A DNA stretch of 64,000 nt from Escherichia phage EF1-1. The notes beneath the pieces are model-generated. The model searched no databases. It had not been told where the DNA came from and was given only the letters and a program-made list of their open reading frames with translations. Of the stretch, positions 47,485 to 49,781 are shown piece by piece; the stretch's first letter is position 1; every line of letters starts with the position of its first letter. The translations under genes and the position numbers were made by a program. The DNA is taken from the sequence record PQ571289. One strand, written 5' to 3'.

Positions 47485-48444
47485 TTAGATTCCAATAATA
47501 GTTGCTGCTCGTTTATCTTTGGATCTGGTGTTTGCTCTACTACGTGACAAACCTCCACAAGATTCACAACGAATGATATCGAAAGAACTTACCGCAGTGT
47601 GGTATTGCTTACCAGTAACAACATGAACATGATCACTGCCGCAACGAGAACAACGGACTTTCTCATCTGGGTAATAAGCGGATAAGTTAGGATGCTGTGG
47701 AATCCACGGAAGGATTTTCATATACAAATCACGGAGTGAAACAACATCGCCATCATTGTAAATCTGCATACGTTCAAAAGCATCACGATCACCTTCACAA
47801 CATGCTTTCCATAAAGGGAACCCCTCGTTATCCAGTTTTTCACTTTCTGTTTCGAAATATGCTCCCATTTCTTTAAGGGAGTTGGAAGGAAGTGCAAATT
47901 GTTTCTTAGCTGCCTTCAATGTATCAACAACTACATAATTAGAAGGAGGAGCCATATCGTGATATGCAAATCGTTGGTTAATGTATGCACGGTCAAACTT
48001 ATACCCGTTGTGTGCCACAACTACATCTGCCTCATTCAGAAGGTTCCAAAGATCTTGGCAAAGCTCCCAATCATCTGTATGATCAATATCAAAAAGAGGA
48101 TAAGAAGACAAATTCTTACCTTCCACTTCACCAGTATACAGATCAGCAGAAGAATAAGATAACAAATAACCTCTGCGAATTACCTGGTCTGGAGAAATGA
48201 AGGCTTTGAATCGACGGAAAGTATATGCAATCTCTGGTGCAGTTTCAACATCAATAATTTTAATAACTGGTTGTTTCTTTTTAACTGGTTCTTGTTTACT
48301 TCCACTGAAACGTGCAAGGAAATCATTCACTGTGCTTTTTCTTGTTGGGCTACCTAAAACAATTGCTGCAATATTGCGAGAAGACATACCCTCTGCACTC
48401 ATACTAAGGATATCTGCTTTCTGCTCTTCTGTTAATCTGCTCAC
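47485..48444 (-). CDS. DnaQ-like 3'-5' exonuclease (DEDD family) with C-terminal zinc ribbon
   Basis: IIDVETAP exo I motif, VAHNGYKFD exo II, CSRCG..CESCGG. Confidence 0.6.
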   Translation of the reverse strand: MSRLTEEQKADILSMSAEGMSSRNIAAIVLGSPTRKSTVNDFLARFSGSKQEPVKKKQPVIKIIDVETAPEIAYTFRRFKAFISPDQVIRRGYLLSYSSADLYTGEVEGKNLSSYPLFDIDHTDDWELCQDLWNLLNEADVVVAHNGYKFDRAYINQRFAYHDMAPPSNYVVVDTLKAAKKQFALPSNSLKEMGAYFETESEKLDNEGFPLWKACCEGDRDAFERMQIYNDGDVVSLRDLYMKILPWIPQHPNLSAYYPDEKVRCSRCGSDHVHVVTGKQYHTAVSSFDIIRCESCGGLSRSRANTRSKDKRAATIIGI

Positions 48445-49559
48445 TCTGCCTCCTGTTGTGAGATGTATGACTGAAGCATACTCTCAAATGTTGTATCGTC
48501 ATTATCCCAGCGTTTCATGTATACCAACTGGAAAATTGTTTCTATCCATTCATCTGTTGTCATATGGACTTCTTCTCCATCCCAAGAAGTAAAATTAACA
48601 CCATCTGGGAACCACGAGTAGTAAGTATCTTTAACTGTTTGGAAAAGCTCTGCTTGAGTTTTACAAGCTGAAAGAAGATTAAAACAAGTAATATCTCCAA
48701 ACTTAATATCAAAATCTTGATAGGGTCGGATACTATCTGTTTTATCTCCCATTAGCATCTGATATGCTAACCAGTAACTGCCCCAACCTTTAACTTCTTT
48801 CTTTTTACCTTTATCTACGATCCATATATCGCCAATAGATTCGTCAATAAGAATTATATCTGGATTTTTAAAGACTCCATCTTCTTTGTAGAAATTAAAA
48901 AGAATACTAGGAGTATGTAAACTATCTTTATCTATAGATACCACGATATAAGAAAATTTACCCGTCCTTTTATAATCTTTATAACCTTGGAAACCATATT
49001 TCTCTAACTCATCATCAGCTTCTATTACAGTAACAACATCACCATTGTGGAACTCCACAAGATAATCTTTGGTTTCTGAAAGCTGAAGTGGTTTGATATC
49101 TAATCGTTCAGATTTATATTCTACAGGCATTTTGAAGGCGTGTCTGAAAGTTTTTCCTACGCCAATAACTCCGCAATATTTTTCTAAACGTAGATGTTTT
49201 AGAATACCTAAGACTTTTGTTTTAGCTGCTTGGAAGGTGTGTCCGATATCTTCTGGCGGGTATTGCTTATCAATGATTTCGAACTCTTCCTTTGTGAAGG
49301 GACGTTTGTTTTTGGAGGCTCTTTCTGCATTTGTATCTCCTAGCCAACCTCCAATTTTAGTCTTGCTTTTACCCCAAAACTCTGTCTTATTTTTAAATTC
49401 CTTTTGAGCACCTGAAGGGATGTGCTTCGCAATGATTGTTCTTTTCTCTAATGCAGACGCTGCTTGGAAAGCAATCTGATCATAATCGATTGCAGCTATT
49501 GTTTCTTCGTTGACATATAAATGAAGATCTTCAGGTTTAATTAAAATATAACCGCTAAT
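48441..49559 (-). CDS. flap endonuclease / RNase H-like 5'-3' exonuclease; start codon uncertain
   Basis: FEN motifs GKTFRHAFKMPVEYKSER, IEADDE, ILIDESIGD, MGDKTDSI; frame open 49571-48441 with no ATG/GTG/TTG upstream of internal Met 49130. Confidence 0.6.
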   Translation of the reverse strand: MSGYILIKPEDLHLYVNEETIAAIDYDQIAFQAASALEKRTIIAKHIPSGAQKEFKNKTEFWGKSKTKIGGWLGDTNAERASKNKRPFTKEEFEIIDKQYPPEDIGHTFQAAKTKVLGILKHLRLEKYCGVIGVGKTFRHAFKMPVEYKSERLDIKPLQLSETKDYLVEFHNGDVVTVIEADDELEKYGFQGYKDYKRTGKFSYIVVSIDKDSLHTPSILFNFYKEDGVFKNPDIILIDESIGDIWIVDKGKKKEVKGWGSYWLAYQMLMGDKTDSIRPYQDFDIKFGDITCFNLLSACKTQAELFQTVKDTYYSWFPDGVNFTSWDGEEVHMTTDEWIETIFQLVYMKRWDNDDTTFESMLQSYISQQEAE

Positions 49560-49571
49560 ATTTCCCCCTAA

Positions 49572-49781
49572 TTATTCATCGTCATCCTCTGTTGAGAATG
49601 TTTTAGTATACGGACATTGACGACTTTTCGGGATTGCTATAACTTCATCTTGGTTAGCGTTAGAATAGTAGCAATATTTTGTGTTGCCATTAACTTCAGA
49701 ATCAGACAAGATTAAAGTAATTTGACCTGCTGCTACTGTGAAACTAAAAGCTAAAAGAACGACTGTCAGAATCTTTTTCAT
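49572..49781 (-). CDS. small secreted protein (69 aa)
   Basis: AGGAGG RBS; signal-peptide-like MKKILTVVLLAFSFTVAAG. Confidence 0.55.
   Translation of the reverse strand: MKKILTVVLLAFSFTVAAGQITLILSDSEVNGNTKYCYYSNANQDEVIAIPKSRQCPYTKTFSTEDDDE

Follow-up and report, generated by a model that had tools for sequence, protein, structure and literature searches.

The gene considered here lies on the minus strand of a 64,000-nucleotide stretch of the genome of Escherichia phage EF1-1 (sequence record PQ571289; the whole of this stretch is referred to as the window) and encodes a nuclease whose reading frame extends far upstream of its first canonical start codon. From the comparison of the locus with its relatives, we consider it highly probable that translation of the nuclease begins at a near-cognate AUU codon (ATT 49559-49557), directed by a Shine-Dalgarno (SD) sequence and probably coupled to the open reading frame (ORF) that precedes it. 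The gene product, as predicted from homology, conserved residues and modelled fold, is a 372-residue 5'-3' exonuclease/flap endonuclease of the flap endonuclease (FEN) family. The start is understood as a natural instance of an event already known, initiation at a near-cognate codon as in infC and pcnB of Escherichia coli; it is well supported and does not constitute a new mechanism.

Start codon of the nuclease gene

The nuclease frame is open from the TAA at 49574-49572 to the TGA at 48443-48441, over 376 codons, and when it was re-read on the minus strand, the coordinates and the 147-codon open extension devoid of ATG, GTG and TTG that an earlier sequence-only reading had described proved to be exact. 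Not one of the 147 codons preceding ATG 49130 is canonical for initiation, and the first that is canonical occurs as codon 148 of the open frame. With the window's own codon usage, ∼8.0 canonical start codons are expected in 143 codons, and the probability of finding none is ∼2.6e-4. Among all stop-to-stop frames of at least 100 codons within the window (n = 109), the leader of the nuclease is the longest without a canonical start, with 147 codons compared to 75 for the next; this runner-up (8106-8567, minus strand) was discarded as an antisense shadow of plus-strand genes. In most of the lineages compared below, the frame likewise has no canonical start ahead of the catalytic Asp. In GenBank, 64 phage genomes of the genus Phapecoctavirus (phAPEC8-like, Stephanstirmvirinae) match the stretch 48300-50000 at 95-99.9% identity, and the TAA, the G-run and the ATT are common to independent isolates from many laboratories. 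Given that these independently sequenced genomes concur in all three elements, a sequencing artefact, which had been listed among the options in the sequence-only reading, is excluded, as is a strain-specific pseudogene.

Following the TAA, the start region reads TTA, AGGGGGA (49569-49563, just 3' of the stop, where the sequence-only reading had placed it), AAT, ATT (49559-49557) and AGC GGT TAT, and no near-cognate start other than this ATT lies 3' of the upstream stop and ahead of codon 2. The same region was compared in 18 distinct lineages, collected from GenBank, IMG/VR, ENA and Logan contigs, whose nucleases are 50-100% identical to that of the window. All 18 align ungapped in an arrangement of upstream-ORF stop, GGAGG or GGGGG, four nucleotides (nt), the codon in question, and then (Ser) Gly Tyr/Phe. 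The codon is ATT in nine lineages, ATC in five, and ATA and CTG in two each; ATG, GTG and TTG do not occur. The nearest outgroups (47% identity) have GGAGG, four nucleotides and TTG at the homologous codon; Vequintavirus has AGGAGG, four nucleotides and TTG, Certrevirus has ATG, and other outgroups use ATG or GTG, the ATG-starting ones with a spacing of 5-6 nt from GGAGG. The window's SD thus stands at a functional distance from the proposed codon and, since the outgroups carry TTG, GTG or ATG at the aligned codon behind an SD, the ATT is positionally homologous to bona fide starts. In one lineage (L020), an in-frame TAA directly precedes the codon (GAGGAGTAA ATC GGT TAC), and because of this stop immediately 5' the frame opens only at the ATC.

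Immediately behind the conserved, start-competent near-cognate codon, the sequence shows coding constraint. Ser2 is written as AGC, AGT or TCA, Gly3 as all four GGN codons and Tyr4 as TAT or TAC, and over codons 2-24 the ratio of nonsynonymous to synonymous substitution is 0.03-0.10 between closer pairs, with synonymous sites saturated. Purifying selection at the protein level starts at codon 2. The option of initiation at AUU 49559-49557, raised in the sequence-only reading, thereby gained support from three sides: alignment with the outgroup starts, a near-cognate codon in every lineage, and selection from the very next codon.

The larger databases gave a consistent picture. In 36 protein clusters of ∼50% identity or more (P0001-P0036), the printed N-termini never fall at the homologous position, and the starts chosen by the gene callers are scattered over internal GTG, TTG and ATG codons, as expected if no such phage has a canonical start there. 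A pattern scan of IMG/VR for DTG at the start position returned no homologue, its four matches all being unrelated chance matches, and all true homologues in IMG/VR carry ATT or ATC; so do the four true homologues found in a metagenome scan (JGI).

Stephanstirmvirinae-like phages have preserved the near-cognate start while the protein diverged by at least 50%. In a neighbour-joining tree, the near-cognate clade is monophyletic, with ∼5-6 switches among near-cognate codons. In the measurements of Hecht et al. in E. coli, ATT, ATC, ATA and CTG gave 1-2% of the initiation seen with AUG and ranked above the remaining 57 codons; it is exactly these four best non-canonical starts that occur at the nuclease start. 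A phage gene translated on the E. coli ribosome retains a near-cognate start across a whole subfamily while sampling the four most efficient non-canonical codons. It provides natural evidence for the measured hierarchy of these codons and lends itself to work on IF3-dependent start selection and on coupling during infection.

Two observations were made alongside. Among homologues outside the near-cognate clade (L005-L006, L023-L044, L067-L070, L082-L083), TTG and GTG starts are unusually frequent compared to ATG, which fits selection for modest expression and, as far as the sequences go, points to weak initiation as a trait of the whole family. In L074 and L075 (at ∼1001 in both), an in-frame ATG without SD occurs nine codons 3' of the ATT or ATA, with the near-cognate codon continuing to be served by the conserved SD; both phages may produce two N-terminal isoforms or be in transition to a canonical start.

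The nuclease and its amino-terminal part

With the extended product as query, tblastn matched 1212 phage records, of which 900 align over 80% or more of the length including the N-terminus. Identities are 77% in Justusliebigvirus, 42% in Certrevirus, 37% in Vequintavirus, 30% in Pseudomonas PAK_P5 and 29% in Vibrio ICP1. The homology does not begin only at Met 49130, a possibility that the sequence-only reading had named as decisive against its view. The FEN N-terminal motifs which that reading had seen in the extension are real and conserved: D25, located in ...AIDYDQIAFQA, closes the first β-strand (residues 16-25) and is invariant in an alignment of 42 homologues, together with F55, R139, Y148, K149, E180, D182, D183, D210, K211, D212, G260, Q267, D272, D275, M348 and D354. 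D27 is nearly invariant, and F138, R139, Y148, K149 and R152 are invariant or nearly so. The annotated Met148 (codon 148 of the open frame) falls in the middle of the motif TFRHAFKMPVEYKSER, which alignment to Taq polymerase identifies as the FR...YK..R motif of 5'-nucleases, and it is not conserved in the outgroups.

The AlphaFold model of the 372-residue product has a mean predicted local distance difference test (pLDDT) score of 95.7 and a predicted template modelling score of 0.89. Its first ten residues average a pLDDT of 85, strands are formed by residues 5-7 and 16-25, and the N-terminal extension supplies the first strands of a PIN-like core. This α/β core is superposable on solved FENs, and the conserved carboxylates (D25, E180, D182, D183, D210, D212, D272, D275) form clusters of the kind needed for two-metal catalysis, the first of them on the N-terminal β-strand; the assignment to FEN/RNase H made in the sequence-only reading is therefore borne out by fold. 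A product of 229 residues, as judged from the sequence, would be without the first catalytic strand, and if cloned or modelled it would represent an inactive piece.

At the level of sequence, the kinship is distant. The window protein matches PHROG_107 'exonuclease' with E = 1e-55; it is without any Pfam match at E ≤ 1, that to 5_3_exonuc_N (PF02739) above the curated threshold included, and PF02739 is matched weakly by 14 of 42 relatives (best E 1.7e-6). A direct search of the 372-residue protein against the chains in the PDB found no match, and a profile search against PDB sequences found only the Taq 5'-nuclease, marginally (E = 0.17), so that a fold search was needed to place the protein. 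Compared to T5 D15, T4 RNase H, E. coli ExoIX/Xni, M. smegmatis FenA and the 5'-nuclease domain of Pol I, its identity is 12-20%, and it is ∼100 residues longer than the T5 FEN, with insertions. The Asp of the Taq 'FDA' (FDA/FDS strand) is apparently Gly here, in 'GVG' or 'GGS' of this family, according to a hidden Markov model alignment only. The protein is a divergent branch of the FEN family, recognisable by fold and not by Pfam. It belongs to the same family as the Vequintavirinae exonuclease (CarlMeissner bas48_0204; Certrevirus PBES 02), with which it shares 37-42% identity over the full length, the SD and the position of the start; unlike the window gene, the Vequintavirinae orthologues have TTG, GTG or ATG as start, which explains why their annotation covers the full length.

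Proposed mechanism of initiation and alternative readings

In the mechanism proposed, translation would start at AUU 49559-49557, read by initiator formylmethionyl-tRNA, with the 30S subunit positioned by AGGGGGA, the core of which is 4 nt 5' of the AUU. Ribosomes ending the 69-codon ORF would be delivered beside the AUU, by coupling or re-initiation, from a TAA 12 nt away. After normal processing as generally known, the expected N-terminus is (M)SGYILIK..., and the predicted N-terminal peptides include SGYILIKPEDLHLYVNEETIAAIDYDQIAFQAASALEK. Considering that AUU, AUC, AUA and CUG initiate at a few percent of AUG and face discrimination by IF3, synthesis of the nuclease would be slow and sensitive to IF3, and the purpose of the weak start could be to limit or time a potentially harmful nuclease. 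We infer the actual use of the AUU, the share of coupling and what the weak start is for from the features of the locus and its relatives.

There exist clear precedents. The only confirmed AUU-initiated genes in E. coli are infC and pcnB. As summarised by He et al. (PMC5499595), IF3 autoregulation acts on the AUU/AUC of infC, and a phage hydrolase produced in E. coli from AUA, AUU or AUC reached 5-7.5% of AUG. The nuclease gene resembles infC and pcnB in having a near-cognate AUU (AUC in some infC orthologues) of the IF3-discriminated class behind a functional SD, with phylogenetic conservation of the codon. It differs from both in that its codon drifts among four near-cognates, CUG included, and in that it sits directly behind the stop of another ORF. 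Whereas the infC product, IF3, closes an autoregulatory loop, none is evident for the phage nuclease, and the AUU use of infC and pcnB is experimentally proven while that of the nuclease is deduced. Like the gene V-gene VII pair of M13, the locus has an upstream stop a few nucleotides from the downstream start and presumably IF3-sensitive initiation; M13 gene VII combines an AUG with the lack of an SD, the phage nuclease a strong SD with the lack of an AUG.

Several points weigh against this mechanism. The N-terminus at the AUU is derived by comparison, and a literature search (phAPEC8, AUU/ATT phage starts, non-canonical exonuclease starts) found no paper on the start of this gene. With 4 nt between SD core and start, the spacing is among the shortest commonly seen, although outgroups with a canonical start share it. 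The Ile or Leu could be kept for reasons of protein function, an objection offset by the lack of any possible start upstream. Expression at 1-7% of AUG may look low for a nuclease of replication or recombination. Lastly, the case for an active avoidance of ATG, as opposed to ATG merely being unneeded, is weak, with only ∼5-6 independent changes.

Translational coupling or re-initiation probably contributes to the nuclease start, since the stop of the preceding ORF adjoins the start in every lineage, whatever the upstream gene. The distance is 1-20 nt in all 18 lineages. In two divergent lineages, the upstream gene is not the 69-residue ORF, yet its stop still abuts the SD or the near-cognate start: in L074 (231-965), it is an N6/N4 DNA methyltransferase, and in L081 (1-533), an HNH endonuclease with its TAA 1 nt before the CTG. 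A stricter version would use the same AUU by termination-reinitiation alone, such that only ribosomes ending at TAA 49574-49572 start the nuclease and its output is a fixed small fraction of that of the 69-codon ORF. The invariable closeness of stop and start, including that to the methyltransferase and the endonuclease, speaks for this version, as does the coupling of the gene downstream through a GTGA overlap; moreover, E. coli re-initiation depends on initiator tRNA, and IF3 inhibits it (PMC2268962). Phage genes are in general tightly packed, however, so that proximity is weak evidence, and the strong, exactly spaced SD has been conserved, which is required by de novo initiation and not strictly by reinitiation. 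The two modes are not mutually exclusive, and we regard the strict one as possible, if the less probable. An RNA structure at the start was considered as a coupling switch and rejected: no stable structure was found around the start, the minimum free energy being no better than that of shuffled sequence (z = +0.5).

SD-directed initiation at the AUU could also be given a regulatory meaning. The obligate near-cognate start might be a device that ties the nuclease to the IF3-to-ribosome ratio and to the translation of the preceding ORF, a proposal that we hold to be rather doubtful. If true, the phage would sense the translation state of its host to time or cap the nuclease, in a phage counterpart of infC-type IF3 control.

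The remaining readings fare far worse. It is very improbable that translation starts at another near-cognate a few codons downstream, or that a pseudogene or sequencing error is involved. The window does have ATT at codons 5 and 7, but in relatives these codons are not near-cognate (AAA, GAA, TTT, ACT and others), they would be 16-22 nt from the SD, and codons 2-4 vary synonymously only, hence are translated; the pseudogene or error is countered by the agreement of the 64 genomes. Slighter still is the probability that the public annotation is right in giving a 229-residue product from ATG 49130, with the 147 codons 5' of it an untranslated leader or a decayed remnant. Nearly all GenBank/RefSeq records are annotated in this way, and ATG 49130 is the first canonical start. 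Yet the leader is under strong purifying selection at the protein level, shares homology in 900 records with the N-terminal part of full-length nucleases, holds the invariant Asp25 and half of the FR..YK..R motif, and builds the first strands of the PIN-like core in the high-scoring model (pLDDT 95.7), while ATG 49130 lacks an SD and Met148 is not conserved.

Least probable of all is a signal-peptide-nuclease fusion, made by reading through the stop codon of the 69-residue ORF or by frameshifting there, for which the in-frame TAA of the window and a fusion-like database protein (P0005, 444 residues) could be cited, but which is opposed by a frame relation that varies (+2 in ECGD1/JohannJBalmer and phiWec181, in frame in others) and differs from that of the window in Justusliebigvirus and phiWec181-type phages, by two in-frame stops (TAG...TAA) directly before the ATC of L020, by different upstream proteins in L074 and L081, and by the biological implausibility of a secreted replication nuclease. 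A programmed event would show a conserved frame relation with no second stop in between, and neither was found, so that the readthrough option of the sequence-only reading falls away; its observation that the TAA is in frame with the nuclease is true in this window and, as the relation is not conserved in relatives, coincidental. P0005 was rejected as a natural fusion (L072 1501-2835): where the protein has Gln in place of the stop, its contig carries TAG, and the gene caller had chosen a TAG-recoded code for the longer ORF.

Locus layout and public annotation

The features of the locus are collected in Table 1. The TAA of the 69-residue ORF is 12 nt 5' of the ATT, and the GTG start of the downstream 3'-5' exonuclease overlaps the nuclease stop as GTGA (48441-48444). 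Given this overlap, the operon presents itself as a series of starts that are weak or coupled. The 69-residue ORF has its SD and ATG 3' of the hairpin and T-run. The candidate promoter TTGACT-17-TATTAT, recognised from its sequence, would likely drive the 69-residue ORF, the nuclease and downstream genes; because this promoter-like element and the hairpin with T-run are located 5' of the 69-residue ORF, that ORF, the nuclease and the downstream 3'-5' exonuclease probably form a single transcript. The hairpin may terminate transcription of the upstream rdgC-like gene, act as a stabilising stem-loop at the 5' end of the transcript, or do both. The 69-residue ORF is kept beside the nuclease throughout Stephanstirmvirinae; it begins with MKKILTVVLLAFSFTVAAG and has two Cys residues, a conserved C-terminal part '...RQCPYTKTF...' and an acidic tail DDDE.

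Table 1. Features of the nuclease locus, in window coordinates
Feature	Position	Strand	Description or basis
Full-length FEN-type 5'-3' exonuclease coding sequence (predicted)	48441..49559	-	372 codons + TGA, start ATT
Proposed AUU (ATT) initiation codon	49557..49559	-	positional homology to outgroup TTG/ATG/GTG starts
Shine-Dalgarno AGGGGGA	49563..49569	-	direct sequence reading; GGGGG core 49568-49564, 4 nt 5' of ATT
N-terminal 143 codons, absent from most public annotations	49131..49559	-	first β-strand with Asp25, half of FR..YK..R motif
Internal ATG (Met148), start chosen by gene callers	49128..49130	-	without upstream Shine-Dalgarno; inside conserved motif
Upstream 69-residue ORF, signal-peptide-like N-terminus, phrog_4641	49572..49781	-	ORF list and PHROG match
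Candidate sigma-70-like promoter TTGACT-17-TATTAT, TG-extended	49821..49849	-	consensus scan only, 10/12 matches
GC-rich hairpin + T-run, between promoter and 69-residue ORF	49797..49820	-	immediately 3' of the promoter-like element
Downstream 3'-5' exonuclease gene (RNase_H_2/DnaQ-like)	47485..48444	-	neighbouring genes of relatives match PF13482

The start has not gone wholly unannotated. The record of ESCO13 (KX552041.2 / NC_047770.1) has a 1119-nt coding sequence (CDS) from exactly this ATT, with a ribosome-binding site feature; the codon was checked, and the annotation provides independent support for the AUU start. The genome announcement of ESCO5/ESCO13 does not mention the start, and the literature search found no proteomic or ribosome-profiling data for these phages. 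Among six phapecoctavirus records opened, five have the 229-residue 'putative exonuclease' fragment, and the start is at the internal ATG in those of ESCO5, iGC_PHA_EC001, REC, phAPEC8 and WPEC4. The gene is truncated in all inspected records other than ESCO13 (ESCO5 RefSeq, REC, iGC_PHA_EC001, phAPEC8, WPEC4, KP13-26, ECGD1, JohannJBalmer, phiWec181, PsgM04F), in the Justusliebigvirus records at a GTG inside the DYDQ motif, and most of the other records have no gene annotated over the N-terminal stretch. Most database entries therefore represent the back 60% of the protein.

The case exposes a widespread mis-annotation, in which a nuclease has been deposited without its first catalytic strand. 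Gene callers limited to ATG, GTG and TTG miss genes of this kind systematically, and the locus offers a signature that could guide genome-wide searches: an SD and a near-cognate codon, followed by a long open leader that is under purifying selection.

Two further observations concern the records themselves. Some annotate 'hypothetical proteins' of 30-40 residues inside the N-terminal part of the nuclease (phAPEC8_00121; two CDSs of WPEC4), corresponding to window 49208-49330 on the minus strand in another frame, to 641-763 of L010 and to 440-532 and 542-664 of L084; these mini-ORFs are almost certainly spurious gap-fillers. Campylobacter phage B15 (MG065650), Acinetobacter phage ABPW7 (OP562383) and Klebsiella phage ZCKP1 (MH252123) are 98.6-99.1% identical to E. 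coli phapecoctaviruses in this region, and Pseudomonas phage PsgM04F (OR584014) matches the phiWec181-type phages instead; the host labels of such records other than E. coli may stem from contamination or from a host range that is unusually broad.

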